DNA of 64,000 bases, taken from contig CAYUIQ010000010.1 in NCBI GenBank assembly GCA_964444795.1, forward strand, positions 8,047 through 72,046. The letters run 5' to 3'. How positions within the stretch are numbered: position 1 is the first letter of the stretch; each line of letters opens with the position of its first letter. The notes below the pieces were generated by a model. That model ran no database searches. It saw only the letters and a program-made list of their open reading frames with translations, and had not been told where the DNA came from. This DNA comes from an uncultured Planctomycetaceae bacterium (GTDB lineage Bacteria > Planctomycetota > Planctomycetia > Pirellulales > Thermoguttaceae). This document shows, one piece after another, positions 3,377-45,549 of this stretch. The position numbers and the translations under genes are program-made.

Positions 3377-4648
3377 ATGCGAAATCTGGTGACGCTCGTA
3401 CTGGGAGGCGGTCGCGGCACGCGGCTCTATCCGTTGACGAAGTATCGGTCCAAACCGGCCGTGCCGCTAGCCGGCAAGTACCGGCTGATCGATATTCCGC
3501 TGTCCAACTGCATCCATAGCGGGCTGAACCGGATTTACGTGCTCACGCAGTTCAATTCGGTGAGCCTCCATCGCCATATCCGCAGCACCTACAACTTCGA
3601 CCCGTTCGATCGCGGGTTTGTCGAGATCCTCGCGGCCCAACAGACGCTGGCCAGTACCGACTGGTATCAGGGCACGGCCGACGCGGTGCGGCAGAACCTT
3701 CGATATCTTCAGCAGCCGGGCATCGAGTACGTGCTGATTCTCTCCGGCGATCAGCTCTACCGGATGGACTTTCGGCAGATGATTGCCACCCACCGGGAGT
3801 CGAAAGCCGACGTGACGATCGCCGCGGTGCCGGTGGCCCGGGAAGCGGCTTCGGGGCTGGGGATCATGCGGCTGGACGACTCCGGGCGTGTGGACGGGTT
3901 TCTCGAAAAGCCGAAGACCGACAAGGAGCTTTCGCACGTGCGGACCGATCCGGCGTGGATCGACGCCCGGGGGATTGAAAGCCGTGGGCGCGATTGCCTG
4001 GCCAGCATGGGCATCTACCTGTTCAATCGGGATGCGCTGGTCGACGTACTCGACAAGACGCCCTACCAGGACTTCGGCCGGGAGATCTTTCCCGCTTCGA
4101 TCCGCGCGCGACACGTCCAGGTCCACCTCTCCGACGGCTATTGGGAGGACATCGGAACGATCCGGTCGTTTTTCGAAGCGAACCTCGAGATGACGGCGAC
4201 CGAACCGCCCTTTTCGCTGATTTCGGACGACGGGCCGATTTACTCCCGAGCCCGTTTTCTCCCTCCTTCCCGGCTCGACGGCGCCACGGTCCGCGGAAGC
4301 CTGATGGCCGACGGCTGCCTGATCGATCGGGGCGTGACGATCGAGAATAGCGTCATCGGACTGCGTTGCGTCATCGGCCGCGACGTGGTGATCCGCAACT
4401 CGGTGCTGATGGGCAACGACTTCTACGAATCGCCCGACGACCGCAACGGCCACTCGCCGATCGGAATCGGTGCCGGCAGCCACATCGAAGACGCCATCAT
4501 CGACAAGAACTGCCGCATCGGCCTGGGCGCACGGATCGTCAACCGCCAGGGCGTCGACGCCACCGAGGAAACGGCCCACGGCATGATCCAGGACGGCATC
4601 GTCGTGGTCCCCAAAGGGGCGACGATCCCCGACGATTGGTCGCTGTAG
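3377..4648 (+). CDS. glgC: glucose-1-phosphate adenylyltransferase (plant/cyanobacterial-like paralog)
   Basis: GGGRGTRLYPLTKYRSKPAVPLAGKYRLIDIPLSNC nucleotidyltransferase motif plus a C-terminal left-handed beta-helix region. ATG at 3377. Confidence 0.9.
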   Translation: MRNLVTLVLGGGRGTRLYPLTKYRSKPAVPLAGKYRLIDIPLSNCIHSGLNRIYVLTQFNSVSLHRHIRSTYNFDPFDRGFVEILAAQQTLASTDWYQGTADAVRQNLRYLQQPGIEYVLILSGDQLYRMDFRQMIATHRESKADVTIAAVPVAREAASGLGIMRLDDSGRVDGFLEKPKTDKELSHVRTDPAWIDARGIESRGRDCLASMGIYLFNRDALVDVLDKTPYQDFGREIFPASIRARHVQVHLSDGYWEDIGTIRSFFEANLEMTATEPPFSLISDDGPIYSRARFLPPSRLDGATVRGSLMADGCLIDRGVTIENSVIGLRCVIGRDVVIRNSVLMGNDFYESPDDRNGHSPIGIGAGSHIEDAIIDKNCRIGLGARIVNRQGVDATEETAHGMIQDGIVVVPKGATIPDDWSL

Positions 4649-4794
4649 GACGCCGGGCTTCATCCCCGGCCCAACCGGCACGACCGCTGCAATCCCTCTC
4701 CGAGACGCGTCCCATGGGGACACTCCGTAACCTACATTTGCGCTGAGCGGCGGTATGCGCCGTCGTCAACCGTCTTCGGAGATCGTTTGAGACG

Positions 4795-7644
4795 TTGCCC
4801 ATGAACGACCTTGTGCTGGAGAGTGTTCGCGCCATCGTTCTCGCCGGAGCGTGCGCGTTTCTTTGGCGTCAGGGACGCAAGCGGAGCGACCTTTTGCGCC
4901 GGGGGTGGAATTGGATCCTCGGCGGATTCGGCCTGCTGCTGCTGGCCAGCCTGCTGGACGTCACCGACAACTTCGAGTCGCTCAACCGGTTCGTTGTCGT
5001 CGGCGATACACCGGTCCAGGCGTTCCTCGAAAAACTGGTGGGGTATCTGGGAGGGTTTATTGTCCTGTTGGTGGGCCTCGTTCGTTGGATCCCCACCGTT
5101 ACGTCCCACGAAAAAATACTGCAAGGCGAACGGCGATTTCGCGCGATTACCGAGAATACGACCGATCTGACGGTCATCCTCGGCGAGGATGGAACGTATC
5201 GTTATGCCAGCCCCTCGATCGACAAGACCTCCGGGTATTCGGTCGCCGAGGTTGTCGGCGCACGACCCACCGATTTTCTCCACCCCGAAGACGAACAGGC
5301 GGTGATGGAAACCGCCCGTCGGGCCCTTGCACATCCCAACACACCAGTGGAGATCAAGCCCTTCCGCGTCCTTCATCGCCAGGGTCACTATTTCTGGCTG
5401 GACGGCATCGCCGTCGGCATGCCCGACGTGCCGGGAGTCGAGGGCGTGGTGATAAACTGCCAAGACGTCACGGCCCGCCTCCGGGCGGAAGAAGAGTTAC
5501 GCTACCGCGACGATTTCCAACAGATCGTTACGGCAATTTCCTCCGAATTCGTGCGGCTTGTGCCCGAGGAAATCGGCGACGGGATTGACCGAGCACTGGC
5601 GACAATCGGTCGATTCACCGACGTCGATCGGAGCTACGTGTTCCTGCTGCGCGACGACCGCGAAACGCTCGACAATACGCACGAATGGTGCGCCGCGGGA
5701 ATCGAACCGCAAATCGACAGTCTTCAGGGGATCCCGCTGGACGAGGGGTTGCCTTGGTTTGCCAAGAGAATTCGGGCCTGCCGGGACGTGCATATTCCTT
5801 CCGTCGCGGCGCTTCCGCCGGAGGCCGCGGTCGAGAAGGAGCATTTCCAGCGACAGGCTATTCGCTCTCTGGTCGTCGTTCCCCTGATCGGCGGCCATCG
5901 CTTGAAGGGATTTCTCGGGTTCGATTCGGTGCGGGCGGAGAAGGAGTGGCCCGTCGAGATCGTCGCGCTGCTGCGGATCGTGGGGGAAGTCTTCACCAAC
6001 TCGCTGGAGCGAAAGCGAACCGAAGAGGAACTGGCCGAAAGCGAGAAGCGATACCGTCTTCTTGCCGAGAAATCGAGCGACGTGATCTGGACGTCCGACC
6101 TGGAGATGAACTGGAGCTACATCAGCCCGTCGATCGAGCGGTTGTGTGGCTACACGGTGGAAGAAGCGATGGCCCGGCCGATCCACCAGATGCTGACTCC
6201 CGCCTCGGCCATGCGCGCGATGGAAACGCTTCGAGAATTGCTCCAGACCGTTGCCGACGATCCGAGCAAAGTGTCGGAGCCGGTCACCGTGGAGGTCGAA
6301 TTCATCTGCAAGGACGGAGCGACCGTCTGGACGGAAGTCAATGCGTCGCTGGTCTGCGATGAAAACGGTAGTCTGGTCGGTTTGCTGGGAGCCGCACGGA
6401 ATATTGCCCAGCGGAAGCAGGCCGAGACGGAACTGGCCGAGGCCAAGAACGCGGCCGAAAAAGCCAATCTGGCCAAGAGCCAATTCCTGGCCAACATGAG
6501 CCACGAAATCCGCACACCCATGACGGCCATCCTCGGATTCGCCGATTTGCTGCACGAGAACACCGTGAAACCCGAAAACGTCGCCGCGGTGGATACGATT
6601 CGCCGAAACGGAGACTACCTCCTCGAGTTGATCAACAACATCCTCGACCTCTCCAAGATCGAGGCGGGCAAACTGGAAATCCAGCGCGTGCGGTGCTCGC
6701 CCCTTGAGATCCTCTCGGAAGTGGCCTCGTTGATGAAGGTCAGGGCCGACGCAAAAGGCCTCTCGCTGGCGCTCCAATGCCAGGGCTCGATCCCCCGGAC
6801 CATCGAGACCGACCCCGTGCGGCTGAGGCAGATTCTCATCAACCTCGTGGGAAACGCCGTCAAGTTCACCGAAGTGGGAGGCGTTCTGGTCGTCGTCCGC
6901 CTGACCGACGACTCCATTGGCAAGGCAAACCTGCGGATCGAGGTTTCCGATACGGGCATCGGCATGAACGGGGAGCAAACCGAAAAACTCTTCCAGCCGT
7001 TTGTTCAGGCGGATACATCCGCGACGCGAAGATTCGGCGGCACCGGACTGGGATTGACCATCAGCAGACGGCTCGCGCATATCCTCGGCGGCGACATCCG
7101 TGCCCAGAGCGAGCCGGGCATGGGCAGCACCTTCACCGTCGACGTGTCGCCCGGGCCGCTGGTGGGCGTGGCCATGACCGACCGTTTCCCCAAGGCCGAA
7201 TCGACACGCACGCCGGCCGAGACTTTCGATCTCACCGCAGACGTTGTCCTGAACTGCCGGATCCTGCTGGCCGAGGACGGTCCCGACAATCAACGGCTAA
7301 TCTCGTTCTTATTGAGAAAGGCCGGGGCCGACGTCGTCATGGCCGAAAACGGACGCGTCGCGGTCGAGTGCGTCGGGCGGGCGCAAGCCGACGGAAGACC
7401 GTTCGATCTGGTGTTGATGGACATGCAGATGCCCGCGGTCGATGGGTATCAGGCCACCGAGAGACTTCGCGCCGACGGGTGTACGGTTCCGATCATTGCC
7501 CTGACCGCCCACGCCATGGCCGGAGACCGGCAGAAATGTCTCCAAGCCGGCTGCAACGACTATCTGACCAAACCGATCGATCGGAGCGAGTTCCTGCTCA
7601 TGATCGCGCGGTACACCCACACCGCGGACTCGCGATCCACCTGA
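4795..7644 (+). CDS. hybrid sensor histidine kinase/response regulator (TM-PAS-GAF-PAS-HisKA-HATPase-REC)
   Basis: N-terminal TM helices; PAS-like blocks; H-box [14 protein letters not shown]; HATPase [12 protein letters not shown]; C-terminal receiver ([11 protein letters not shown]...[10 protein letters not shown]...LTAHAM). The track start at 4795 is TTG; the first ATG is at 4801. Confidence 0.9.
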
Positions 7645-9788: not shown

Positions 9789-11216
9789 ATGCGTCGAGCA
9801 ATCCTACCCATCGCCCTCGCGTTGCTCTTTATCGGTACGACCGCCTGGTGTGCCGAGCCCGCCGGCGACCGGCCCAACATCATCTACATCATGGCCGACG
9901 ACCTGGGGTATGCCGAGGTCGGATGCTACGGACAGAAGAAGATCCGCACGCCGAGCCTCGATCGCATGGCCGCCGAGGGGATCCGCTTCACGCAACATTA
10001 CTGCGGCGCTCCCGTCTGTGCGCCGTCGCGATGCGTGCTGATGACCGGCAAGCACCTCGGACACGCCTTCATCCGCAACAACCGGGAGGTGAAGCCGGAA
10101 GGCCAGTTCCCGATCCCCGACGAAACGATCACCGTGGCCGAGATTCTCAAAACACGCGGTTATGCCACCGGATGCATGGGCAAATGGGGACTGGGCCCTC
10201 AGGGCAGCCCGGGCGACCCCAACCGCCAGGGGTTCGATCATTTCTTCGGATACAACTGCCAACGCCACGCCCACAACTTCTATCCCCGATACCTGTGGCG
10301 CAACGACAAGCGGATACCGATGGAAGGCAACGACCGCGGGCTAACCGGCAAACAATACTCCCACGATCTGTTGACCGACGAGGCGCTTTGGTTCATTCGC
10401 GAGAATAAAGACGGACCGTTTTTCCTTTACGTGCCCTACACGATCCCGCATCTGGCGATCCAGGTGCCCGACGATTCGCTGGCCGAGTACAAGGGCAAAT
10501 GGCCCGACCCGCCGTACACGGGCGGACACGGTTACCTGCCGCATCCGGCTCCCCGGGCGGGTTACGCGGCCATGGTGACCCGGATGGACCGCGACATCGG
10601 CCGCATCCTCGCCCTGGTCAAGGAACTCGGCCTGGACTCCAACACGTTGGTGATGTTTACCTCGGACAACGGCCCCACGTACGATCGGCTGGGCGGCTCC
10701 GATTCCGATTTCTTCGAGAGCGCCGGTCCGTTTCGCGGGCTCAAGGGGAGCGCGTATGAGGGGGGTATTCGCGTGCCGATGATCGCCCGATGGCCGGGCA
10801 AGATCGAACCGGGGGCCGTGACCGACCATCTGTCGGCCTTCTGGGACGTCATGCCGACAGTCGCGGAGGTGGCCGGCGCGCAGGCGCCGGACGACACCGA
10901 CGGGATCAGCTTCCTGCCCACGCTCTTGGGCACCGAAGAGCAGAAGCCGCACGAATTTCTCCTCTGGGAGTTTCACGGCTACGGCGGTCAACAGGCGGTG
11001 CGCATCGACCGCTTCAAGGGCATCCGCACCAAGTGTTATCAGAACCCCGACGGCCCGATGGAACTCTACGACCTGAAAAACGACATCGGCGAGACGACCA
11101 ACGTCGCCGCCGACCACCCCGAGATCGTCGAAAAGATGGACCGTCTATTGCGCGACGAGCACACCGACTCGCCGCTGTGGGATTTCAATCGCGCGAAGCG
11201 ACCGAAGCCGCGGTAG
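9789..11216 (+). CDS. arylsulfatase (type I sulfatase, formylglycine-dependent)
   Basis: Signal peptide [21 protein letters not shown], then [12 protein letters not shown] and the sulfatase signature C-A-P-S-R ([13 protein letters not shown]). The in-frame ATG at 9789 removes an implausible 72-aa leader from the track ORF. Confidence 0.9.
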
Positions 11217-11240
11217 TTGTGGTTTGGGCACTTGTGCCAG

Positions 11241-11849
11241 TCAAAAGGATCGTTGGGCGACAACACGCGACTTCAGGTGATTGCAGCGGAGATCTTTCGT
11301 TACCTCTACGCTGCTATCATCAGCCTGGTAGTTGAGAATATCAGCGTGGTTTTCCGTAACCCTCTGGCAGTTCTCTCTGGCACCTTCTGCAATCTGATTC
11401 GCCGGAAGCCGAGCAAGAATGGCCAATTCACCGAGGATCTGCCATGCGGGGAACACTCGCAAGCGATTCTCGCCTTCCCAGAACCTCGCCAGGATCTTGG
11501 CTATCAGTTCCGAGAGCTGCTCTTGCGAGCCGGTCAAATTGGCGTGTCTCTGATCGACGTCATTGACGCCGGTATCACCATATGCGTCTCCATCAATCCC
11601 AATGCCTGCCTGATCGCAGTCATCTCGCGTGAGACACACCCCAAATAGCTTCTCGGATTTCTTTGGGCAGTTTGTTTGAAAGAAGGCGGCAACACTCCGC
11701 AGTTTCTCGACTTCGCTATCCACGGCGAACACGCTTACCGAAAGGTCACTCTTCTTGACTCCCGCATCGAAGTATTTCAGTAACACCCCGAGTGATGGCT
11801 CGTTTCCGTACCAGCTCCCGGGGTTGCCTGAAAAAATGCGCAGATACAT
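11241..11849 (-). CDS. hypothetical protein (third gene of low-GC three-gene operon)
   Basis: 202-aa ORF with ATG at 11849, 26 nt downstream of the preceding gene. Local GC is clearly lower (28/60 in line 11281-11340). No motif recognised. Confidence 0.6.
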   Translation of the reverse strand: MYLRIFSGNPGSWYGNEPSLGVLLKYFDAGVKKSDLSVSVFAVDSEVEKLRSVAAFFQTNCPKKSEKLFGVCLTRDDCDQAGIGIDGDAYGDTGVNDVDQRHANLTGSQEQLSELIAKILARFWEGENRLRVFPAWQILGELAILARLPANQIAEGARENCQRVTENHADILNYQADDSSVEVTKDLRCNHLKSRVVAQRSF

Positions 11850-11875
11850 AAAGCCACTACCCCGGGTCGAAGATC

Positions 11876-12589
11876 CTACTGCATGTCAAGGAGCCGTTGA
11901 CGGGCTTCTTCGCGAACGTCGTCGTCAGAGTCGTCTGTCAGTGACTCTAGAACAGCTCGCCTGTCGCCAGCGGACAGACCGGCCAAGTTGTCAAGAATCG
12001 CAAGTCGCACGATAGGATCCGGGTGAGTAGCCAACTCACCCAAGGCGGTAGCGCGCGCGGTTGAAGAAACGCCGTCGCAATGCGCGATCAGCCGGACAAA
12101 CAGCTCACACTCCGGTTGTTTCGACGCGGCCAGTTCCTTCAGTACGGGCCAGGCCTCCTCTCCAAAGTCCTCCAATAGCGATGCGGTCAGCAACAGGCAT
12201 CTTTCTTGGCCTGTTGCCTCATATTGGTGAAACCCCACCTTGCAGACGGCTTCTGGCGTCGAATCACGCCTGATTAGATCGAAGAGTGAGTTTCGGACAG
12301 CCACCCCTACGTCAACAAGCGCCGGAAACAGCACCTCGGTGAAGCTGTGCTCTCTCTTGCGTAACGTCACACCAACTTGCTCACCCCCCCAAGGACAAGG
12401 AGCGGTCGAAGACAGAATGGGCTCCCATTCGGCGGCATACATCTCGTTATTGCTGCGCAGAGACTCCTTGTCTTCCAGGGAACTGCCGTACATGACCTGG
12501 TGTGCCGTCTCGCTTGGGCTAGACGACGTGAAGTAGTCGTCCTTAATGAGAGGCCTCTTACCACGCGGGTTGACTTCTCCGACGCTCAT
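11876..12589 (-). CDS. hypothetical protein with C-terminal HEAT/armadillo-like repeats (second gene of operon)
   Basis: 237-aa ORF with ATG at 12589 preceded by a GAGGA SD, 9 nt after the upstream stop. The C-terminus THPDPIVRLAILDNLAGLSAGDRRAVLESLTDDSDDDVREEARQRL resembles HEAT repeats. Confidence 0.6.
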   Translation of the reverse strand: MSVGEVNPRGKRPLIKDDYFTSSSPSETAHQVMYGSSLEDKESLRSNNEMYAAEWEPILSSTAPCPWGGEQVGVTLRKREHSFTEVLFPALVDVGVAVRNSLFDLIRRDSTPEAVCKVGFHQYEATGQERCLLLTASLLEDFGEEAWPVLKELAASKQPECELFVRLIAHCDGVSSTARATALGELATHPDPIVRLAILDNLAGLSAGDRRAVLESLTDDSDDDVREEARQRLLDMQ

Positions 12590-12598
12590 CCTTTATCC

Positions 12599-13330
12599 TC
12601 ACTTCCTTGAAACGTACGCTTTTGCAGCTTCCAGGTCTTTCAGGGCCCCTTCCAGCGCGTCAATCATTCTGCGAAGCTGGGACTCCTCGCACTGGAAGTC
12701 GAAGGACTCATGATGTCCCGAATCACGGCTTACCTTGACTAAGATGACTGGTACGAACGACACGCACTCCGGTTTATAGTCCCCAATCTGGTCGTTCAGC
12801 CCAGCGCCAAATGGTCTCTTGATGACGGCTCGCAAATCGACAAGGGTCGTACACCCCGTATAGCTGGGCAGCAACCTGGAGGCATGAAACTTCTCGAGTC
12901 TTCGTCTGTTATCTTGCTGCACGATTTCCAGAAACTTGGTGAGGAAAACGCTTGCCGATTCCTCGTCCTCTGGCAGCAGCCCAAGTTCCTTCAGGTCTTT
13001 GAGAAAATCACTCGCTGTGTCACTAACCGGATTCCACTGACGATAGATAAACAGGAGGAGCTTAATGACTCTCAAGATGTTTGCCGCATTACCGCCCAGT
13101 TCACTAATACGACTGACGGCTTCGTCGGTAGCCTTCTTCTGCTCTCCAGTCGTCTGCGTCTTGTATATGCCAGGGATATCGGAAAGAAGGGCGGTCCCTT
13201 GCTCTTCGGTCACTTCCTCCCACAGGAGTGGAAAGTCGTCCCGAAACTCCTTCGGAAGATCCGCAAACTGATTGAAAATGGCGGTTCTCATAAACCTATC
13301 CGTGAATCGTCCAAAATAGTACCGAGCCAA
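12599..13330 (-). CDS. hypothetical protein (first gene of low-GC three-gene operon)
   Basis: 243-aa ORF. The start is TTG 13330 or ATG 13291. The N-terminal two-thirds look helical and the C-terminal ~70 aa strand-rich. It contains the string RRRLEKFH (Rx4-6H). No family recognised. Confidence 0.6.
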   Translation of the reverse strand: MARYYFGRFTDRFMRTAIFNQFADLPKEFRDDFPLLWEEVTEEQGTALLSDIPGIYKTQTTGEQKKATDEAVSRISELGGNAANILRVIKLLLFIYRQWNPVSDTASDFLKDLKELGLLPEDEESASVFLTKFLEIVQQDNRRRLEKFHASRLLPSYTGCTTLVDLRAVIKRPFGAGLNDQIGDYKPECVSFVPVILVKVSRDSGHHESFDFQCEESQLRRMIDALEGALKDLEAAKAYVSRK

Positions 13331-13739
13331 TCTTCAAATCGGCCGTGAAACGACGCACAATTGCAGCCAATCACGGAATAATACCCGAAAGGCTGCCATA
13401 CATCCACCTCTCCGCCTCCAGACGCAGGACACAACGAGCATCCGCAACCGGGTAAGCCGGATGGTCTCGACACGAACATCCAACGTCTCTATTCTATCAC
13501 CCCCTCGCTTGTGGGGCAACCGAGAGAGTGGAGCCACTTCTGAAAGAACGATCGTTTCCCGGCTTTACGCTTTGCCGAACAGGCTCGACCCACAATTCAG
13601 AACCCCTCTAATGACGGGCATGAATGGCGAATTCGCCGCCTCGGCGATATATGAAGGGGGGGGTGCCCGTGATGCCCGCCTTATACTCGCGAGATGCCAA
13701 TGCCGCCCAACCTTCTCGCTCCAGCGAGTTCCCCCCGTC

Positions 13740-14762
13740 TCACCGCCGCCGGGCCAAAACGCCGTTGATCACCAAAGCGACCATCAGCACGATGCCGAGA
13801 AGCATTTGTCGGGCGAGGTCGTCGATCCAGTTGATTTTGTAGAGGCCGACCTTGAGCACGGTGAAGGTGAGCACGCCGACGGCCGTCTTGCCCATGCCGC
13901 CTTCGCCGCCGAAGAGACTGGTTCCGCCCAGCACGACACAGGCCACGGAGCTGAGCAGCAGGGCTTTGTTCTGGTCCAGCGTGACGTTGCCCATGCGTCC
14001 CGAGTTGACCAGTCCGCCCAGCCCGGCGGTGACCGCGCAGATGGCCAGGCAGACGGCGATGGTCCAGGCCGTTCGCACACCGGCCAGCCGAGCCGCCTCG
14101 CGATTGCCGCCGGTCATGTAGACGTAGCGTCCGAAACGCGTGTGCTGGAGCACGACATGGCCGACGATGAACACGGCCACCGCCAGCATCGCGCTATAGG
14201 GGAGCGTGAATCGACCGGTCAGTTCCAGTCCCTCGTTGCCGATCGTGCGAAACACTCCGGGGATCTTGACCATCTCGCTCTGGGTCAAGTACTTGGCCAG
14301 ACCCTCGGCGATGAACATCATGGCCAGCGTGATGATGAAGCTGGGCAGCCGCGACCAAACGGTCAACACGCCCGAGAGGAATCCCAAGGCCAGGCAACTG
14401 GCAAGCGCCAAGAAAATGGTCAGGGCGACCATGCCGTCCGAGACCGTGCCGTCGCGTGCGATGGCCCAGTTCTCGAAGAGCCAGCCGCACAGGCAGGCCG
14501 ACCACAAGGCCATCATGCCCACCGACAGATCGATCTCGGCGCAGAGCAACACGTAGGTCAGCCCCGCCGCGACAATAGCCATCGCCGCGCCTTGCTGGAG
14601 AACGAACACCAGCGTGGCGGGGCTCAAGAATCCGGGCGCGGCAATCGTGAAGAACAAAACCAGCACCGCCAGGCTGATCAGCGGCGCGAGGTCGCGGGCT
14701 TCCCAACGAGCCGTCAGACGTTTCGACAGGGAATCGGACCGGTCATTCTTAGATCTATTCAT
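13740..14762 (-). CDS. sugar ABC transporter permease (RbsC/AraH-type)
   Basis: 340 aa with about 10 predicted hydrophobic helices and typical ribose-family permease blocks (LSVGMMALWSA..., GGTSLFGGEGG). Confidence 0.9.
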   Translation of the reverse strand: MNRSKNDRSDSLSKRLTARWEARDLAPLISLAVLVLFFTIAAPGFLSPATLVFVLQQGAAMAIVAAGLTYVLLCAEIDLSVGMMALWSACLCGWLFENWAIARDGTVSDGMVALTIFLALASCLALGFLSGVLTVWSRLPSFIITLAMMFIAEGLAKYLTQSEMVKIPGVFRTIGNEGLELTGRFTLPYSAMLAVAVFIVGHVVLQHTRFGRYVYMTGGNREAARLAGVRTAWTIAVCLAICAVTAGLGGLVNSGRMGNVTLDQNKALLLSSVACVVLGGTSLFGGEGGMGKTAVGVLTFTVLKVGLYKINWIDDLARQMLLGIVLMVALVINGVLARRR

Positions 14763-14768
14763 AAGCGT

Positions 14769-16283
14769 TTACGCATAGCGCATGAGGGTTGCTTTATCGA
14801 CCTGCGTGTCGGCGAATTCCCGAGTCACGCGGCCGCGGCTCATCACCATAATCCGGTCGGCGTACGTTAGCAGCATCTCCGGCTCGGCCGAACAGAGGAC
14901 CACGGCCAGCCCCTGCTCTTTGAGTTCGACGACCAACCGCATCACCTCGTCTTTGGCACCCACGTCCATGCCGCGAGTCGGTTCTTCCAACAGCAGTACG
15001 CGCATCGGCCCCATCAGCCAGCGGGCCATGATCGTCTTCTGCTGGTTGCCACCGGAGAGATTTCCCGCCGCCATGCGCGGGTCGTCGACCCTGCATCCAA
15101 CGCGTTTGAGGATCGCACCAGCCGCGGCGATTTCCTTCTCGGCCCACAGCCAGTGGCCGGTTGCGCGACCCAGGTGTGCCAGGGTAACGTTCTTGTAGAT
15201 CTCGGCCTTGGGGAAGAGGCTCTTCGCGCGATCGGCGGCCATCATGGCGACGCCCCGGCTCACGGCGGAACGCGGACGACCCGGTGCCAGCGGCTTGTCG
15301 TCCAGGAGCACCTCTCCCTCGTCGGCACGGTTAGCTCCGGCCAGCGTGTGGACCAGTTCCTGATGTCCCGCTCCGACGAACCCATAAAGCCCCAGACACT
15401 CGCCCGGCGAAACCTCGAAATCGACGTTGTCGAAAGCGCCGGCCAGCGACAGGCCTTGCACCCGAAAGACGGGCGGACGGTCCGCTGGTGGTTGCAGCGT
15501 GGCGCCCGAGGCGTATCCGTCTTCGGTCTCTTCTATCTCGTGTCCCAGCATGGCCCGGATCACGTCGTGTTTGTCCAGCGTGTTCTTTTCGGCGGTTTCC
15601 AGTCGCCGGCCGTTGCGCAGGATCGTCACCCGATCGCAGATCTCCAACACGTCTTCAATGAAATGGCTGATAAAGACAATGGCCACACGCCGATGGCGCA
15701 GCCGCCGAATCAACTCGAACAGCCGCCGCGTTTCCGGTGGGCTCAGCGCGCTGGTCGGCTCGTCGAGAATGAGCACGCGGGCGCCGCTGTGAATACCTCG
15801 TGCGATCTCGACCATCTGCCGAATCACCAGCGGAAAACTATCCAGGCGGCGGGTGACGTCGACGTCGATCTCCAATTCGGCCAGATGGCTCCGTGCCGCG
15901 GTATGCATGGCCGGCCAGTCGATGCGGCCGAACCGGGCGACCGGCTGCCGGCCGAGAAAGAGGTTCTCGGCCACCGAGAGTTGTCCCACGCCGGAAAGCT
16001 CCTGATAGACCATGGCGATTCCCCGCGCCAACGCGGCCTGTGGAGTGGCCAACCGCGCGACTCGCCCGTCCAGGAGCACGGTTCCCGAGTGGTCGGGCAA
16101 CACGCCGGCGAGGATCTTCATCAGCGTGCTCTTACCCGCCCCGTTGCAGCCCACCAGACCGTGGACTTCGCCGGCTCGCAGCGTGAAGTCGACGTCCTTC
16201 AAAGCCGTTACCGGACCGAATCGCTTGCCGATGCGGCGGCATTCCAACAGCGGGGCGGTGGTATCGGTCGAAGTGGCCGTCAT
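14769..16283 (-). CDS. sugar ABC transporter ATP-binding protein (duplicated ATPase, RbsA/MglA-type)
   Basis: Two NBDs: Walker A GCNGAGKST, signature LSGGNQQK, Walker B LLLEEPTRGMD. ATG at 16283 overlaps the upstream stop (ATGA). The track ORF has a spurious 132-aa N-terminal extension. Confidence 0.9.
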   Translation of the reverse strand: MTATSTDTTAPLLECRRIGKRFGPVTALKDVDFTLRAGEVHGLVGCNGAGKSTLMKILAGVLPDHSGTVLLDGRVARLATPQAALARGIAMVYQELSGVGQLSVAENLFLGRQPVARFGRIDWPAMHTAARSHLAELEIDVDVTRRLDSFPLVIRQMVEIARGIHSGARVLILDEPTSALSPPETRRLFELIRRLRHRRVAIVFISHFIEDVLEICDRVTILRNGRRLETAEKNTLDKHDVIRAMLGHEIEETEDGYASGATLQPPADRPPVFRVQGLSLAGAFDNVDFEVSPGECLGLYGFVGAGHQELVHTLAGANRADEGEVLLDDKPLAPGRPRSAVSRGVAMMAADRAKSLFPKAEIYKNVTLAHLGRATGHWLWAEKEIAAAGAILKRVGCRVDDPRMAAGNLSGGNQQKTIMARWLMGPMRVLLLEEPTRGMDVGAKDEVMRLVVELKEQGLAVVLCSAEPEMLLTYADRIMVMSRGRVTREFADTQVDKATLMRYA

Positions 16284-30455: not shown

Positions 30456-30841
30456 GGATCGGTTCCTCTCCTCTCGGTTGGAGGCAACAATGAAGTTCGG
30501 TACTAGTCTACCCCAATGGCCAGGGGTTTCCACCACCGGAGGCCCGATCTGCGTGAAGCTGGGATGCGATACCCACCCACCAGGGGCATCCTTGACGGTC
30601 AATCCTCCCCCTGATAAACTGGCGCGTTTCATTTTGGACGAAATGGGCTGTCTCTGTCGAAGGCGTCCCGACAGCGGCGATTCTCGATGAACCCCGCGGT
30701 CCATGGATTCGCCTCGACCGATACTGAGGCTGGCTTTCTCGCCCCCCTATAATGGGGATGCCTCCCGATACACAACGAAACCGATTTCTTACTCTCCCCC
30801 TGTTTTGACCCATCCGTTTGGAGGTCACGAAGGAACAAGCC

Positions 30842-33556
30842 ATGGCTGAAAAGTACGTCTATTTCTTTGGTCCGCAAGGGACCGACGGCAACGCCGCGAT
30901 GAAGAACACCCTGGGCGGCAAGGGCGCCAATCTGGCCGAAATGGCCAAGCTGGGCATGCCCGTCCCCGCCGGGTTCACCATCACCACCGAATACTGTGAT
31001 GTCTACCTCAAGGAAGGCAACCAGTTCACCGATTCGCTCAAGGCCGAGGCGGCCGTGGCGCTGGCCCAGACCGAAGAAGCCATGGGCATGAAGTTTGGCG
31101 ACCCTGAAAATCCGCTGCTGCTCTCCTGCCGCAGTGGTGCCCGGCAGTCGATGCCCGGCATGATGGAAACCGTGCTCAACGTCGGACTCTGCTCGGCCAC
31201 GATTCCGGGTCTGATCAAGAAGTCGGGCAACGAGCGATTCGTCTACGACGCCTACCGCCGCTTGATCACCATGTACAGCGACGTGGTGATGGAGAAATCC
31301 GAAGACATTGAGCCCGAGGAAGGCCAGGGCATCCGCGGTCAGTTGGAGAAACTGATGGACGCGGTCAAGGAAGCCAAGGGCTACAAGTCGGATACCGATC
31401 TGACCGCCGAGGATCTCAAGGCCCTCTGCGAGCAATACAAGGCCAAGGTGCAAGAGGTGCTGGGCAGCCCGTTCCCCGACAACGCCGACGATCAGCTCTG
31501 GGGCGCCACCGGCGCGGTGTTCAAAAGCTGGAACGGCAAGCGTGCCGTGTCCTACCGCCGGATCGAGAATATCCCCGGCGAGTGGGGAACCGCCACCAAC
31601 GTGCAGAGCATGGTCTTCGGTAACATGGGCAAAACCTCGGCGACCGGCGTGGCCTTCACGCGCAACCCGGCCACCGGCGAGAACAAGTTCTACGGCGAAT
31701 GGCTCATCGACGCCCAGGGCGAAGACGTAGTGGCCGGCATTCGCACCCCCAGCCCGTTGAACGAAGAGACCAAGAACGAGCAGAACGAGCACCTGCAATC
31801 GCTGGAGACCGAATGGGCCGACTCCTACAAGGAACTGGTCGACATCCGCAACAAGCTCGAGACGCACTATACCGATATGCAAGATATCGAGTTTACCATT
31901 CAAGAGGGTAAGCTCTATATGTTGCAGTGCCGCAGTGGCAAGCGGACCGGTACCGCGGCCTTGAACATGGCCATGGACATGTTGGACGAAGGGCTGATCG
32001 ACGAGAAGACGGCCGTCATGCGGGTAGGACCCGAGCAGTTGGACGAACTGTTGCACCCGATCGTCGATCCGGCCGCCGAGAAGAAGGCCGAGGCGATCGT
32101 CTCCGGTTTGCCGGCCGGTCCCGGTGGCGCCCGTGGACAGATTGTCTTCACCTCCGACGCGGCCGTCCAGTGGGGCCGCGAGGGCAAGACGATTATCCTG
32201 GTCCGTGAAGAGACCAATCCCGAGGACGTCGAGGGGATGCGAGCCGCCGACGGCATTCTCACCGCCCGCGGTGGCATGACCAGCCACGCGGCCTTGGTCG
32301 CCCGCGGTTGGGGTAAGTGCTGCATCGTCGGCGCCGGCGCCGTGAAGATCGACTTCGCCGCCAAGACGATGACCGTCGGCAACGTGACGCTGGCCGAGGG
32401 CGACACGATTACGCTCAACGGCACCAAGGGTAAGGTTTATCAGGGCGAGATGGCCATGATGGACGCCACGGAGAACCCCCGCTTCAAGACCTTCATGACG
32501 ATGGTCGATAAGTTCCGCGAGATGGGCGTTCGCACCAATGCCGACACGCCGGAAGACGCCAAAGTGGCCCGCGACTTCGGAGCCGAGGGAATCGGCCTGT
32601 TCCGCACCGAGCACATGTTCTACGGTGCCGGCAGCGACGACGCGCTGTTTGCCCTGCGGAAGATCGTCCTTTCCAATACCGAAGAGGAGCGCAACGCGGC
32701 CATCGACGGCCTGTTCCCCTACGTGAAGAAGGACATCAAGGCTACGCTGGAGGCGATGGACGGTTGCCCGGTCACCATCCGGCTGCTCGATCCGCCGCTG
32801 CACGAGTTCATTCCGCAGACGGCCGATGGTCAGGCCGAACTGGCCAAGGCGCTCGGCATCACCGCCGACGAGGTTAAGGCCCGCGGCGAAGCGCTGCACG
32901 AAGTCAACCCGATGATGGGTCACCGCGGCGTGCGTTTGGGGATCACCTACCCGAAGCTCACCGAGATGCAAGTTCGGGCGATCTTCGAGGCGGCCGCCGA
33001 GTTGATCAAGGCCGGCAAAGACGCCAAGCCCGAGATCATGGTCCCGGTCACCTGTGCGGTCAGCGAGTTGGACGTATCCAAGGTGATTTGCGATCGCGTG
33101 TTTGCCGAGGTAAAGAAAGCCACGGGCGTCGACATCCCGTACGTTTACGGCACGATGATCGAGATCCCGCGAGCCTGCCTGTTGGCCGACAAGATGGCCG
33201 TGACGGCCGAGTTCTTCTCCTTCGGCACCAACGACCTGACGCAGATGAGCTACGGGTTCTCGCGCGACGACATCGGCGGGTTCCTGCAAGAGTATCTCGA
33301 CCAGGGCATCCTCGAGGCGGACCCCTTCCAGACGATCGACCAGGAAGGTGTCGGCCAGTTGATTGAGATGTCGGTCGAGCGTGGCCGAAAGACGAAGCCG
33401 AAGCTGAAAGTCGGCATCTGCGGCGAGCAGGGCGGCGATCCGGCCAGCGTCGAGTTCTGCTACAAAAACGGTCTGGACTACGTAAGCTGCTCTCCGTACC
33501 GCATCCCCATCGCCCGACTGGCCGCCGCGCAAGCGTCGATCAAAGCGAAAGGGTAG
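30842..33556 (+). CDS. ppdK: pyruvate, phosphate dikinase
   Basis: MAEKYVYFFG...GGKGANLAEM ATP-grasp N-terminus, phosphohistidine loop GGMTSHAALVARGWGK, and a C-terminal PEP-utilising TIM barrel (FSFGTNDLTQM). ATG at 30842 with a GGAGG SD. Confidence 0.95.
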   Translation: MAEKYVYFFGPQGTDGNAAMKNTLGGKGANLAEMAKLGMPVPAGFTITTEYCDVYLKEGNQFTDSLKAEAAVALAQTEEAMGMKFGDPENPLLLSCRSGARQSMPGMMETVLNVGLCSATIPGLIKKSGNERFVYDAYRRLITMYSDVVMEKSEDIEPEEGQGIRGQLEKLMDAVKEAKGYKSDTDLTAEDLKALCEQYKAKVQEVLGSPFPDNADDQLWGATGAVFKSWNGKRAVSYRRIENIPGEWGTATNVQSMVFGNMGKTSATGVAFTRNPATGENKFYGEWLIDAQGEDVVAGIRTPSPLNEETKNEQNEHLQSLETEWADSYKELVDIRNKLETHYTDMQDIEFTIQEGKLYMLQCRSGKRTGTAALNMAMDMLDEGLIDEKTAVMRVGPEQLDELLHPIVDPAAEKKAEAIVSGLPAGPGGARGQIVFTSDAAVQWGREGKTIILVREETNPEDVEGMRAADGILTARGGMTSHAALVARGWGKCCIVGAGAVKIDFAAKTMTVGNVTLAEGDTITLNGTKGKVYQGEMAMMDATENPRFKTFMTMVDKFREMGVRTNADTPEDAKVARDFGAEGIGLFRTEHMFYGAGSDDALFALRKIVLSNTEEERNAAIDGLFPYVKKDIKATLEAMDGCPVTIRLLDPPLHEFIPQTADGQAELAKALGITADEVKARGEALHEVNPMMGHRGVRLGITYPKLTEMQVRAIFEAAAELIKAGKDAKPEIMVPVTCAVSELDVSKVICDRVFAEVKKATGVDIPYVYGTMIEIPRACLLADKMAVTAEFFSFGTNDLTQMSYGFSRDDIGGFLQEYLDQGILEADPFQTIDQEGVGQLIEMSVERGRKTKPKLKVGICGEQGGDPASVEFCYKNGLDYVSCSPYRIPIARLAAAQASIKAKG

Positions 33557-33676
33557 TGCTGACCGGGACGGTTACCGCGTAATGTAAACGCAACTTCAAG
33601 GGACGGTGGTGAGAACTGCCGTCCCTTTTTTTGCGCGCTGGGCACGTTTTGTTAGCCCCGTCGCCTGCGACGGGAG
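33383..33676 (+). repeat. direct repeat copy A (ppdK 3' end + terminator + left arm of REP element)
   Basis: Read base by base against 35932-36224. Identical over the coding part except two substitutions at the left edge (gacGaaGcc vs gacCaaCcc). There is one T fewer and 2-3 substitutions after the terminator. Confidence 0.9.
33600..33632 (+). terminator. rho-independent terminator of ppdK
   Basis: Stem gggacgg / ccgtccc with an 11-12 nt loop, followed by a T7 run, 44 nt after the ppdK stop. Confidence 0.7.
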
Positions 33677-33778
33677 AATCAGTTAGCCCCGTCAATAGCG
33701 GCAATTAGTGCCCGGTTTCGCAGTCCGGCAATGCCTGCTGGAGATTCTTGGTGCCTTCGTTGGTTATCCTGCAACCCG

Positions 33779-34408
33779 TCAATCCGAATCGAACCCGAGT
33801 TCCTTGGCCTTTGCGGAGTCGGCTTCGGCCTTGGCTTGTTCACCGATGCGTTCGTACGTGATGCCTCGGTTGATGTAGGCTTTGGCGAGGTTCGGATCCA
33901 GACGAATAGCTTCGGTGAAGTCGACGATGGCCTTGTCGAATTTACCTTGCTCAGCGTGAGCGATGCCCCGGTTGATGTAGACTATGACGAGGTTCCGATT
34001 CAGCCGAATAGCTTCGGTGTACTCGACAATGGCCTTGTCGAATTCAGCTTGCTCGGCGTGGGCGAAGCCTCGGTTGTTGTAGGCTTCGGCGTAGTTTGGA
34101 TTCAACTGGATGGCTTCTGTGTAGTCAACGATGGCCTTATCGAATTCACCTTGCTCAACGCGGGCGAAGCCTCGGCTGAGGTAGGCTTCGGCGTTGTTCT
34201 GATTGAGCCGGATGGCATCGGTGTAGTCGACGATGGCCTTGTCGAACTCACCTTGCTCGACGCAGGCGAGGCCCCGGTTAAATGCGTCGATTGCTTGTTG
34301 TTCTTTCGACCCCCCACAACCCGAAAAGACCAACAGCCCGAGCAGCGAAGTCCACAGGCTGAACTGATACCGGCCGAGTCTCGATTTCGCCGGGGCGGAA
34401 TCGGTCAT
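33779..34408 (-). CDS. TPR-repeat lipoprotein
   Basis: Lipobox LLVFSGC. Five consecutive 34-aa TPR units have a nearly identical core (EQGEFDKAIVDYTEAIRLNPN.AEAY.NRG). Confidence 0.85.
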   Translation of the reverse strand: MTDSAPAKSRLGRYQFSLWTSLLGLLVFSGCGGSKEQQAIDAFNRGLACVEQGEFDKAIVDYTDAIRLNQNNAEAYLSRGFARVEQGEFDKAIVDYTEAIQLNPNYAEAYNNRGFAHAEQAEFDKAIVEYTEAIRLNRNLVIVYINRGIAHAEQGKFDKAIVDFTEAIRLDPNLAKAYINRGITYERIGEQAKAEADSAKAKELGFDSD

Positions 34409-34496
34409 GGTCTTTCCCAGAAGGAGTGGAAGTCGCTGTCGGAGAACACCCGTGCCAGAATGTAGAACCTACTGCCGTCCCTTTTTTTGCGCGCCG

Positions 34497-34643
34497 GGCA
34501 CGTCTTGTTAGCCCCGTCGCCTGTGAGGAGCCATGCCAAACATTTGCCTCACTTCTCCCGTCGCGGGCGACAGGGCTAACACGTTTTCGCCTTCGGGCCG
34601 CTCTACAATCCCTTCGGCCCCCCCGACCTCACCTCGGCCCGGG
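34497..34643. repeat. palindromic intergenic repeat element (family gttagccccgtcgcctg), copy 2
   Basis: Arms 34507-34523 and 34564-34580 are inverted repeats with 2 mismatches. The whole element, plus the upstream ctgccgtccc-T-run-gcgcgccgggcacgt segment, is shared with 36164-36358. Confidence 0.7.
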
Positions 34644-35151
34644 AAGAGTCCGTGTGGTGTGAATCCTTTGGGGCTGCTGCCGCCGGAGCCGCCGTGGCTC
34701 TTTCAACGTGACTGCGTAGTCGGGCCATGTTTTCCGGAAAAGTCAGCAGATGGAGAAGCTGGTCATACGCTGCGTTCTGAATAAGTTGTCCGCGTTCCCA
34801 TCTGCCGATCGTCGCCTCGCCCAGTCTGGTGACACGAGCGAATTCGGCCCGAGAGAGACCTCCGCATTGCTGTCGAATGGCCCGTACCTCGGAAGGTGTC
34901 ATGACATGAAGATGACGACATACGGCTTCATGCATCAGGTCCTCTGCTTCGTCGTCGAGGAATTCCTCGCCACATTCCTCACACCTGCGCACTGGAATGC
35001 GGGCAGACAATTCGACAGGAGGATCTTCCTGACCGTAGGGGAAACGATGGTCGATTGTTTCGGTGGTAATACTCTCGCTTCCACAATCGGGACACGAGAG
35101 ATCGGGGTCGCGGAAAGCTGAAACGCTCGAATTGCCATTTCGGTAAGGCAT
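34603..35151 (-). CDS. MqsA-like antitoxin (N-terminal zinc ribbon + XRE-type HTH)
   Basis: CPDCGSE...RRCEECGEEF (CxxC...CxxC) is followed by the HTH TPSEVRAIRQQCGGLSRAEFARVTRLGEATIGRWERGQ. The C-terminal tail runs into the repeat element. Confidence 0.75.
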   Translation of the reverse strand: MPYRNGNSSVSAFRDPDLSCPDCGSESITTETIDHRFPYGQEDPPVELSARIPVRRCEECGEEFLDDEAEDLMHEAVCRHLHVMTPSEVRAIRQQCGGLSRAEFARVTRLGEATIGRWERGQLIQNAAYDQLLHLLTFPENMARLRSHVERATAAPAAAAPKDSHHTDSSRAEVRSGGPKGL

Positions 35152-35231
35152 GGTCGTCAGTGCTTTCTGTAGGCTTGATTAGGTGTCGGGGTTCCCGGGA
35201 AAGAAGGATTCAAACCGGAAAGAGAGAGATG

Positions 35232-35594
35232 TCACATGTCTTGGTTTCCCCTACTGGTGCTGTAGTGAAAACTTCTTCCCTTGATCTTTCCCGCCCCGAG
35301 TTGAAACTTGATATAGATGTCTCCAACAGGATGGGCAACGACCATCTCGAAGGCCTTCTTTCCGGGCGGCTTTCTCAACTCGATAAACCGGACGCTCTGG
35401 TTCTCGTCTTCGAGCTTTTCGGCTATGAATTCCCAGGCACCGTTAGGAGTGAACGCATCACCACTGGCGGGGTCATTGACGGTCTGCGGTCGCCAGTCGG
35501 TTGGAGCCTCTCGGCTGAATTTCACTGACCGAGCCTTCTTCCTCCTCGCCAGGGTAGCCGCCTCCTGGCGGATAGGTTGTGGCACATCTGACAT
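35232..35594 (-). CDS. putative toxin partnered with the MqsA-like antitoxin (MqsR/RelE-like, tentative)
   Basis: 120-aa ORF 80 nt upstream of the antitoxin gene, giving toxin-first order as in mqsRA. The C-terminal GDIYIKFQLGAGKIKGRSFH resembles the MqsR C-terminus (vYlKi...ivSFk). Confidence 0.5.
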   Translation of the reverse strand: MSDVPQPIRQEAATLARRKKARSVKFSREAPTDWRPQTVNDPASGDAFTPNGAWEFIAEKLEDENQSVRFIELRKPPGKKAFEMVVAHPVGDIYIKFQLGAGKIKGRSFHYSTSRGNQDM

Positions 35595-35649
35595 TTCTCA
35601 CCGATGTCCTCGCTCCATCACTCGGCATACAGACCGCGTCTCCCTTCAG

Positions 35650-35708
35650 ATAGATCATATGATACATTTTAGTGCAAGTCAAGAGAAATATCGGCTCATA
35701 TGATCTAT
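35650..35708. promoter_or_regulatory. candidate operator/promoter of the toxin-antitoxin operon
   Basis: Perfect 13-bp inverted repeat atagatcatatga (35650-35662) / tcatatgatctat (35696-35708). Each arm contains the palindrome TCATATGA. It sits in an AT-rich stretch 56-114 nt upstream of the toxin ATG. Confidence 0.4.
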
Positions 35709-35931
35709 TTCGTTGGGAAAGACGGGCTCCATTGTCGAGTGACGGGTTCTATGTATCTTTCAGGCAACCACTTACGTAAATCCTAAAGGAACACGGTCTC
35801 CAACTTCAAGTAAGAAGGGGCATTTTCGCCAACGAAGTCTCCTCGGGGTGACACATAGTTGTCACCGACTCCACTCCGATGGGGGCGCGATCGCTTGGGC
35901 GTGGGAGACCTGGCGGTCGGCCTTTCGGTTC

Positions 35932-36105
35932 GGCCGAAAGACCAACCCGAAGCTGAAAGTCGGCATCTGCGGCGAGCAGGGCGGCGATCCGGCCAGCGTC
36001 GAGTTCTGCTACAAAAACGGTCTGGACTACGTAAGCTGCTCTCCGTACCGCATCCCCATCGCCCGACTGGCCGCCGCGCAAGCGTCGATCAAAGCGAAAG
36101 GGTAG
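35932..36105 (+). pseudogene. orphan 3'-terminal fragment of ppdK (last ~56 codons)
   Basis: The encoded ...[53 protein letters not shown] is identical to the ppdK C-terminus. Nothing upstream of it resembles ppdK. Confidence 0.85.
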
Positions 36106-36148
36106 TGCTGACCGGGACGGTTACCGCGTAATGTAAACGCAACTTCAA

Positions 36149-36180
36149 GGGACGGTGGTGAGAACTGCCGTCCCTTTTTT
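36149..36180 (+). terminator. duplicated rho-independent terminator
   Basis: Same gggacgg/ccgtccc hairpin as at 33600, followed by a T6 run. Confidence 0.6.
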
Positions 36181-36188
36181 GTGCGCCG

Positions 36189-36358
36189 GGTACGTTTTGT
36201 TAGCCCCGTCGCCTGCGAAGGGAGGAGCTATGTCGAACGTTTGCCCCACTTCTCCCGTCGCAGGCGACGGGGCTAACACGTTTTTGCCTTCCGGCCGCTC
36301 GACGGGGCACCGCTTCTCTACAATCCCTTCGGCCCACCCGAACTCACCTCGGCCCGGA
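36189..36358. repeat. palindromic intergenic repeat element (family gttagccccgtcgcctgc), copy 3
   Basis: Perfect 18-bp arms at 36199-36216 and 36260-36277. The tail ...aatcccttcggccc.ccc.a.ctcacctcggcccgg is shared with copy 2, and this copy has a 17-nt insertion relative to copy 2. Confidence 0.7.
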
Positions 36359-44103: not shown

Positions 44104-44712
44104 ATGGATCCCATCGAACAACTGACCGCGCGGCAGAAGAAGGTTTATCTGTTCATCCGCGAGAAGATCCGCTCGCGGGGATACGGGCCGACGGTCCGCG
44201 AGATCGGCACTCAATTCAAGATCCGCTCGCCCAACGGCGTGATGTGCCACCTCAAGGCCCTGGAGCGCAAGGGGATGATCACGCGCGAGCCGAACATGTC
44301 GCGGGCCATCCAGTTGTCCACCGAGCCGGCCCATCTTCGCGGGCTGCCCCTGGCCGGACGCATCGCCGCCGGCGTCTTGCACGAAGCGATCGAACAGGAC
44401 GAGCGGGTCGAACTCGACGCCATGTTCGACCCCGAGAACAAGGACCTGTTCGTGTTGGAGGTCGACGGCGACTCGATGATCGACGACCAGATCGCCGACG
44501 GCGACTACGTGGTGATTCGCAAGCAGCGAACCGCCAGAAAGGGCCAGATCGTGGTCGCCTTGACCGACGAAAATGAAGCCACGCTCAAACGCTGGTTTCC
44601 CGAGAAGAACCGCATCCGCCTCGAGCCGGCCAACTCGCGGATGAAGCCGATCTACGTGAAGAACGCCAAGGTGATGGGCGTCGTGGTCGGCGTGGTGCGG
44701 AAGGTGCAGTGA
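44104..44712 (+). CDS. lexA: LexA repressor (SOS regulator, S24 peptidase)
   Basis: Winged-helix N-terminus LTARQKKVYLFIREKIRSRGYGPTVREIG, Ala-Gly cleavage site (GRIAAGVL), catalytic region GDSMIDDQI...KGQIVVAL. Confidence 0.9.
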   Translation: MDPIEQLTARQKKVYLFIREKIRSRGYGPTVREIGTQFKIRSPNGVMCHLKALERKGMITREPNMSRAIQLSTEPAHLRGLPLAGRIAAGVLHEAIEQDERVELDAMFDPENKDLFVLEVDGDSMIDDQIADGDYVVIRKQRTARKGQIVVALTDENEATLKRWFPEKNRIRLEPANSRMKPIYVKNAKVMGVVVGVVRKVQ

Positions 44713-45376: not shown

Positions 45377-45468
45377 AGGGCTAACCGGCGGATGCACCAG
45401 TCGCCAAGTGCCAGTGGCACCCAGCGCGCGACGCCGAATGAATGAAAACGGCCGGATGGCCGAACCAC

Positions 45469-45490: not shown

Positions 45491-45549
45491 CCACCTGCCT
45501 CGCGAATTCTCGGCAGCCGATAAATCAGATAGTCCTGCGAGTAAAGAGT

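Follow-up and report, generated by a model that had tools for sequence, protein, structure and literature searches.

What is the function of a compact set of three bacterial genes that differs in base composition from everything around it? The question is raised by a locus at positions 11,241 to 13,330 of a 64,000-nucleotide stretch of DNA (contig CAYUIQ010000010.1 of an uncultured Planctomycetaceae bacterium), which is called the window below. The three genes lie on the minus strand and are named gA, gB and gC in the order in which they are read. On its predicted structure, gA belongs to the prokaryotic COMMD-like proteins. The three genes appear together at unrelated sites as a mobile cassette, and more distant relatives of gA head similar cassettes with different partner genes. 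A role in genetic conflict or defence is proposed tentatively.

The prokaryotic COMMD-like family was first described by Liu, Collins, Healy et al. (Nat Commun 2026; preprint September 2025; PMC13392464; PDB 9q6a/9q6c and 9za1). The published family comprises 250 bacterial and 111 archaeal proteins that assemble into homo-oligomeric rings, each with 8 or 10 subunits; for prokaryotic members other than gA, such rings have been demonstrated by experiment (PMC13392464). Their function was stated as unknown, and interacting partners could not be predicted. Gene neighbourhoods were published only for Myxococcota (type VI-like), Chlamydia and Halobacteria; the Myxococcota genes sit in VgrG/PAAR loci, themselves a kind of conflict locus (PMC13392464). 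A single further relevant paper uses the term COMMD-like; its subject is how the HN domains of human COMMDs swap.

The First Gene Encodes a COMMD-Like Protein

The product of gA (12599-13291, minus strand) is 230 amino acid residues long. Its AlphaFold2 model, built with the family alignment as input, has a predicted local distance difference test score (pLDDT) of 95.8 and a predicted template modelling score of 0.83. The N-terminal part contains seven helices within residues 14-137. The C-terminal part consists of three strands (144-157, 176-189 and 196-201) and a helix (203-229), all with pLDDT above 93. This agrees with the sequence-only reading of the locus, which had described a helical region followed by a strand-rich C-terminal module of about 70 residues.

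When the model is compared with the PDB by Foldseek, the top 15 matches are all COMMD or COMMD-like chains, with E-values down to 3.5e-7. Among them are chains of 8f2r (human CCC complex) and 8p0w (human Commander), both at probability 1.0, and the bacterial COMMD-like structures 9q6a/9q6c. Past these 15 chains the E-values jump to 0.1 or more. The alignments to COMMD chains are full-length, covering 206-233 columns, and the chain 8f2r_F, which holds only a COMM domain, gives a target-normalised TM-score of 0.71.

Sequence profiles lead to the same family. When 1.84 billion cluster representatives are searched with a profile, at least 606 clusters of gA relatives emerge (clustered at 50% identity, E ≤ 1e-3), and the best 150 matches of these 606 clusters are mostly about 230 residues long. 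Among 136 family members scanned singly, 34 match the Pfam COMM_domain (PF07258; best E 1.6e-6) and six match COMM_HN (PF21672; best E 6.9e-4). Against PDB sequences, the family profile matches 9za1, a “COMM domain-containing protein”, at 5.5e-7 with the HN region covered, and reaches about 3e-3 for human COMMD2 and COMMD8. The window's gA alone scores 12.4 bits against COMM_domain (E 0.18), below the gathering score of 22.4 bits, so its membership rests on the fold and on the family-level profile matches. Such a sub-threshold score is expected, since in the published work the prokaryotic branch was detectable only by structure (PMC13392464).

By fold and by family profile, gA is a prokaryotic COMMD-like protein with a helical HN domain (residues 1-140, window 12872-13291) followed by a COMM domain (residues 141-230, window 12602-12871). 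The model has both structural hallmarks of the COMMD family: an all-helical HN domain, and a three-stranded antiparallel sheet followed by an extended helix. Conservation marks both domains as well. Two near-invariant residues of the HN domain, D91 and D99, make up the family signature together with P142, R154, Y172, P174, F199-Q200 and L213 of the COMM domain. In COMMD and COMMD-like proteins, an obligate dimer of COMM domains builds up into a ring of 8 or 10 subunits. By analogy with the published structures of its relatives, gA probably assembles as a homo-oligomeric ring of 8-10 subunits.

A different identity for gA had been hinted at by the string RRRLEKFH, which resembles the Rx4-6H motif of HEPN RNases. 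If this string were an active site, gA would be an RNase toxin. The string is present in the window's gA and in its closest relatives. Across the 136 relatives, however, the histidine (His136) is found in only 15 and elsewhere gives way to Tyr, Phe, Ala, Thr or Ser, while Arg130 is kept in 41 and Arg131 in 57. No HEPN structure occurs among the Foldseek matches, and the confident model matches COMMD folds only. The motif reading is ruled out, and a HEPN toxin is scarcely credible. The sequence-only reading had also held that the locus had no recognisable family and no known function. This was only half right, as gA belongs to the recently described COMMD-like family.

Gene Structure and Composition

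The open reading frames listed for the locus span 12599-13330 (243 residues with a TTG start), 11876-12589 (237 residues) and 11241-11849 (202 residues). The spacers are 9 nucleotides between gA and gB and 26 nucleotides between gB and gC. All gA homologues begin with the N-terminus MRT(A/S)IFN. By this comparison gA itself most likely starts at the ATG at 13291 and has 230 residues, not the 243 counted from the TTG at 13330. Ratios of nonsynonymous to synonymous substitution (dN/dS), each measured against two relatives, are 0.23-0.32 for gA, 0.34-0.65 for gB and 0.30-0.44 for gC. Judged by these ratios, all three are real genes under purifying selection.

The GC content of the three-gene span is 54.0%, against a mean of 62.0% for the window; segments of the same length (2.09 kb) have a standard deviation of 2.7%, and only 1.8% of them are as GC-poor. 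The flanks have 62-64% GC. Across a slightly longer block, 11240-13658, GC is 50-58%, against 60-68% outside. Likewise, GC at third codon positions is 0.60-0.63 in the three cassette genes and 0.77-0.87 in the long genes of the window.

The basic picture drawn from the letters alone holds. The packing of three minus-strand genes and their spacers were as described, apart from the shortened first gene, and the windowed GC and third-position values agree with the reported drop below both flanks. The compact operon remains a three-gene unit that looks co-transcribed. Conserved linkage elsewhere, which had been named as a check, was found: two other loci (L002 and L006) carry the whole triad and a third (L008) has gB and gC as a pair, each time with different flanks. 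The homologues are not unlinked single genes, the composition is not normal for the window, and none of the genes falls in a housekeeping family.

The second gene, gB (11876-12589, minus strand), encodes a protein with a variable N-terminal part and a HEAT-like C-terminal domain. Residues 1 to about 110 are rich in serine and proline, poorly conserved and absent in some relatives. The HEAT-like domain, from about residue 111 to 237 (window 11879-12259), is conserved. The window's gB matches Pfam HEAT_2 at E 3e-5, with 24.7 bits against a cut-off of 27.7. Ten of 11 gB relatives match HEAT_2, the best at 8.4e-7, and several are annotated PF13646. The HEAT-like C-terminus that the sequence-only reading saw in the middle protein is supported at the level of the family. 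Weak, non-significant matches to ImpA_N (TssA) occur in 4 of the 11 relatives, at E 0.03 or weaker. A PDB sequence search with gB gives no match.

The third gene, gC (11241-11849, minus strand), encodes a 202-residue protein that may act as an effector. Alignments of its relatives contain the invariant motifs DVDxRHANLxG and WEGxxRLRxFPA. The AlphaFold2 model is an alpha/beta fold with a pLDDT of 78. This fold has no significant Foldseek match in the PDB (best E 0.8) or among the viral structures of BFVD (best E 0.4). The sequence has no significant match in Pfam, NCBIfam, PADLOC, PHROGs or a profile search of PDB sequences. In the loci sampled, gC always adjoins a gB-type gene.

A Mobile Block of DNA

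With a narrow alignment as query, a scan of genomes gave one locus and a scan of metagenomes gave three. Two of the loci compared with the window, L002 and L006, are each 16 kb long. Compared with the window by blastn, L002 shares a single block, 13537-11241, at 77.8% identity, and L006 a single block, 13658-11240, at 85.3% identity. Neither has any other DNA match to the window. The proteins of L002 are 82% (gA), 65% (gB) and 66% (gC) identical to those of the window; in L006 the values are 84%, 77% and 72%. The gB-gC pair of L008 is more distant, at about 40-43% identity.

The flanking genes of L002 and L006 are wholly unlike those of the window. Copies of gA that are 82-84% identical are found in three different neighbourhoods. 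The shared block extends from the stop codon of gC to 250-370 nucleotides upstream of gA, and matches the extent of the GC trough. The whole cassette, as delimited by the block common to L002 and L006, is placed at 11240-13658 (minus strand).

The part of the block upstream of gA contains two conserved elements. One is a putative promoter found by a consensus scan (13491-13519, minus strand), made up of TTGCCC, a 17-nucleotide spacer and a TG-extended TAGAAT. Both hexamers and the TG of the extended −10 element are kept in the window, L002 and L006. Between this site and gA lies a non-coding leader of about 190 nucleotides (13292-13490, minus strand), with long blocks that are invariant in the three loci. 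The DNA comparison shows a horizontally mobile cassette of about 2.4 kb, which to judge from these alignments moves as one block together with its own conserved promoter-like site and leader.

A 63-residue upstream open reading frame in the window's leader, which ends in an ATGA shared with the start of gA, was considered and rejected: stop codons interrupt it in L002 and L006. The leader might act as a regulatory RNA or as a site for protein binding. It has no match in Rfam. Its predicted folding has a z-score of −1.4, and 3 of 59 base pairs are compensatory, in a comparison of only three sequences. No tRNA genes are present in the window.

A Constant First Gene with Exchanged Partners

Neighbourhoods were also sampled for members of the gA family at falling similarity, which gave 12 distinct loci. 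In all 12, gA is the first gene of a tight set of genes in the same direction, with spacers from −59 to +43 nucleotides. In five loci (L002, L006, L001, L011 and L027) the stop of gA and the start of the next gene overlap as ATGA. In each of the eight loci with adequate flanks, the cassette is 4-18 GC points below both flanks.

The genes downstream of gA are different in different loci. At least six unrelated types are present, of two or three genes each, and the genes of a type vary together as a set. Neither BLASTP nor hhalign relates the partners of one type to those of another; T1 and T2 proteins in particular were compared for hidden homology, and none was found.

The first type (T1) is that of the window, a HEAT-like protein with gC, and is also found in L002, L006 and L008; in L008 only gB and gC are seen, as the contig is cut upstream.

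The second type (T2; L001, L010, L026 and L027) combines a protein that has a C-terminus like a winged helix-turn-helix (wHTH) with a conserved protein of 180-185 residues. The former, the product of the second gene, has a weak match to the PADLOC family WH (1.5e-3). The latter, encoded by the third gene (L001 9327-9884, L010 2365-2922, L026 1492-2034), contains the motifs WGPG, FSED, DISRGA(D/N)LELD and PTYPWFR. It has no match in Pfam, PADLOC or the PDB, and by eye its sequence resembles a small Rossmann-like nucleotide-processing domain.

Membrane proteins with one to four transmembrane segments make up the third type (T3; L011, L028 and L014). The fourth (T4; L017) has a 264-residue protein and a metallophosphoesterase with intact catalytic motifs. 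This third gene of the cassette, at L017 2483-3481 and also present in L018 and L019, encodes 332 residues with the motifs DxH, GD, GNHD and GH. Its sole PDB sequence matches are VPS29 proteins, at a non-significant E of 0.22.

In the fifth type (T5; L020 and L022), a protein of 162-170 residues is followed by one of 106. Upstream of the COMMD-like gene of L022, at 774-1654, are two further tightly linked genes, for 173 and 118 residues. The 173-residue protein has a D...E-x-Q pattern that looks by eye like a PD-(D/E)xK nuclease; it has no match to a hidden Markov model (HMM). Finally, the sixth type (T6), at the P0056 locus, has three genes for about 100-130 residues each and adjoins a Y1 transposase gene.

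One of the loci, L001, whose gA relative is 52% identical, lies in a stretch rich in defence and toxin-antitoxin (TA) genes (3816-5913 and 13182-15544). Its neighbours are a nucleotidyltransferase (MNT) and HepT pair, a HicB-like gene, and a type II methyltransferase with a BsobI-family endonuclease (PADLOC E 5e-140 and 5e-111). The gene directly after the cassette (10155-10838) has a weak AbiEi-like match.

Proposed Function and Alternatives

We tentatively read the cassette as a mobile module of conflict or defence type whose conserved hub is the COMMD-like ring, a reading that we hold at somewhat less than even confidence. It is suggested by the modularity of the cassettes, partners that resemble effectors (transmembrane proteins and a phosphoesterase), AT-rich composition, varied insertion sites, evolution that is relatively fast, the defence-island setting of one locus and the association of Myxococcota relatives with type VI and PAAR genes.

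In this model, the gA ring would be the constant hub, either a scaffold or a sensor. The gB protein would serve as an adaptor. Its variable and probably disordered N-terminus would engage the ring, much as CCDC22 and CCDC93 engage the HN domains of COMMDs, and the HEAT-like domain of gB would hold gC. The gC protein would be a lineage-specific effector that is inactive until a trigger arrives. In other cassette types the same slots could be taken by the wHTH-like and 180-residue proteins, by membrane proteins or by the intact metallophosphoesterase.

Several observations weigh against such a role. The sample of neighbourhoods is small, 12 loci against 606 clusters. Of about five long loci, just one is set in a defence island that can be recognised as such, and the others are found among metabolic genes; the window's cassette itself has a sulfatase gene and a sugar ATP-binding cassette (ABC) transporter operon as neighbours. 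PADLOC-DB v2 has no match for gA or gC and only a generic HEAT-ARM match for gB (E 0.004), and the partners in other cassette types have no significant PADLOC match. The cassette proteins have no significant match in PHROGs. Direct or inverted repeats flanking the cassette were not found, nor was an empty site or a presence/absence polymorphism seen in the metagenomes that hold the locus. Searches of plasmids, phages and viral contigs with four different family members as queries gave no gA homologue. Since gC has no recognisable catalytic fold, the word “effector” is a guess from its position. Finally, no partners were predicted for prokaryotic COMMD-like proteins in the clades examined in the published work (PMC13392464).

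These points bear on what the sequence-only reading had proposed, namely an accessory module (defence, stress or toxin-like) rather than core metabolism. Its accessory part fits the varied insertion sites, the low GC and the relatively high dN/dS. The defence or toxin part is one that we infer, with no PADLOC matches and one defence or TA island among about five long loci.

SecB-like chaperones serve varied TA pairs in toxin-antitoxin-chaperone (TAC) systems. The cassette could be a tripartite addiction module of a similar kind, in which the third genes, such as gC, encode toxins, gB is the antitoxin and the COMMD-like ring is a chaperone or stabiliser of the antitoxin. A constant gene beside variable pairs that change together would fit this arrangement, as would tight coupling of the genes, the presence of L001 among TA genes, and second proteins that share a variable N-terminus and a small C-terminal domain, which in T2 is wHTH-like (the weak PADLOC WH match noted above). 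However, no toxin or antitoxin family was recognised among cassette and partner proteins in Pfam, NCBIfam or PADLOC, the gene order is unlike that of described TAC systems, and HEAT is not a usual antitoxin fold. We consider an addiction module unlikely. A type VI-like or contact-dependent polymorphic toxin, with gA as chaperone or adaptor, gB as effector and gC as immunity protein, is a good deal less probable still. The co-varying pairs recall effector-immunity pairs, membrane proteins in the third position could confer immunity, and the ImpA_N (TssA) matches of 4 of the 11 gB relatives point in the same direction. Those matches are not significant, though, gB lacks a known delivery domain, and no VgrG, PAAR, Hcp or other secretion gene is found near the window's cassette or in any sampled locus.

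The cassette might also have nothing to do with conflict. The COMMD-like ring could be an assembly or regulatory scaffold for lineage-specific clients, for instance in envelope or membrane processes, encoded by a poorly conserved, niche-adaptive operon. The lack of defence HMM matches, the position of most loci among metabolic genes and the membrane proteins among the partners all suit such a scaffold, and eukaryotic COMMDs are themselves scaffolds rather than enzymes (PMC13392464). It is disfavoured by the wholesale swapping of unrelated partners, the systematically low cassette GC, near-identical cassettes at different sites and elevated dN/dS, four features that conflict or selfish modules show more typically. 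We judge it to be about as unlikely as the addiction module, and retain the conflict or defence module with a COMMD-like hub as the preferred reading.

Other Low-GC Stretches in the Window

Two further stretches of low GC are present in the window. One is an islet at 33383-36357, where a ppdK-like gene (30818-33556, plus strand) has its 3′ end. It is bounded by a 249-nucleotide direct repeat, 99% identical (33383-33631 and 35932-36180), which duplicates the end of that gene. Further junction repeats, 56, 82 and 42 nucleotides long, occur both near 34.47-34.64 kb and near 36.16-36.36 kb. The islet resembles a pair of cassettes that entered a single site in tandem. In one of them is a gene resembling a tetratricopeptide repeat lipoprotein, with three 102-nucleotide tandem repeats (33779-34408, minus strand). 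The other carries an antitoxin-like gene with a Zn-ribbon and a helix-turn-helix (34603-35151, minus strand) and, upstream of it, a gene for 120 residues (35232-35594, minus strand).

The other stretch, 44894-48094, has 50-56% GC and directly follows a lexA-like gene (44104-44712, plus strand). It holds genes for 160 residues, for a methyltransferase-looking protein of 317 residues and, overlapping each other, for 208 and 190 residues. It may be another acquired module.

Relation to Known Systems

The cassette gives the first genetically linked candidate partners for bacterial COMMD-like proteins. Its constant hub, swappable pairs, mobile AT-rich block and own putative promoter point to a role in genetic conflict. 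With it, the question of what a bacterial COMMD ring does and binds becomes a three-plasmid experiment. The cassette also bears on the origin of the eukaryotic Commander machinery. The literature searched holds no description of such a cassette (tight operon, putative promoter and leader, swappable pairs and systematically foreign composition), and no work that joins COMMD with anti-phage defence. What appears to be new here is the organisation of the cassette; gA itself is a new member of a recently described family. A broader claim would make COMMD-like rings the hub of a large, unrecognised class of mobile, modular conflict or immune cassettes in bacteria, and would have the Commander ring descend from a bacterial conflict scaffold. 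This is possible, but we regard it as more doubtful than the reading of the single cassette.

The nearest known proteins are the published prokaryotic COMMD-like proteins. Like gA, they combine an HN domain with a COMM domain (a three-stranded sheet and a long helix), are about 230 residues long and share less than 20% identity with eukaryotic COMMDs. They were published as single genes, whereas here gA heads a compact mobile operon with swappable pairs. In the metagenomes searched here the family is also larger, with at least 606 clusters at 50% identity against the 250 and 111 published proteins.

In eukaryotes, COMMD1-10 belong to Commander, which consists of the CCC complex and Retriever, and the fold of gA is like theirs (8f2r and 8p0w). 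Within Commander, the COMMD ring is linked to VPS29, the subunit with a metallophosphatase fold. The HN domains of that ring bind extended segments of partner proteins, and the partners in the cassettes include an alpha-solenoid (HEAT-like) protein and, in another cassette type, a metallophosphoesterase; the likeness is offered as an idea only. That these two partner types prefigure the link between the COMMD ring and the Retriever subunits VPS35L and VPS29 is highly improbable. Commander has ten paralogues where the cassette has one gene, and a 960-residue solenoid where gB has a domain of about 120 residues with roughly three repeats. Homologues of CCDC22, CCDC93, VPS35L and VPS26C were not found among the cassette proteins, and neither these families nor VPS29 has a Pfam match among gB, gC and the other partners. 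The T4 metallophosphoesterase, whose similarity to VPS29 is not significant, differs from it in keeping its catalytic motifs.

Similarities in organisation lead to other systems. The cyclic-oligonucleotide-based antiphage signalling systems (CBASS), Thoeris and the ternary ABC-3C systems likewise have a conserved first component and interchangeable effector-like genes, and are small, AT-rich, patchy in distribution and inserted at varied sites. The cassette differs from them in having no nucleotide cyclase, TIR, ABC ATPase or other known core component, and it matches no PADLOC model. TAC modules also link a conserved oligomeric accessory protein to variable two-gene pairs, and their middle proteins carry variable extensions. 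Their accessory protein has a SecB fold rather than a COMMD fold, and their genes are ordered differently; in the cassette, no TA family is detected.

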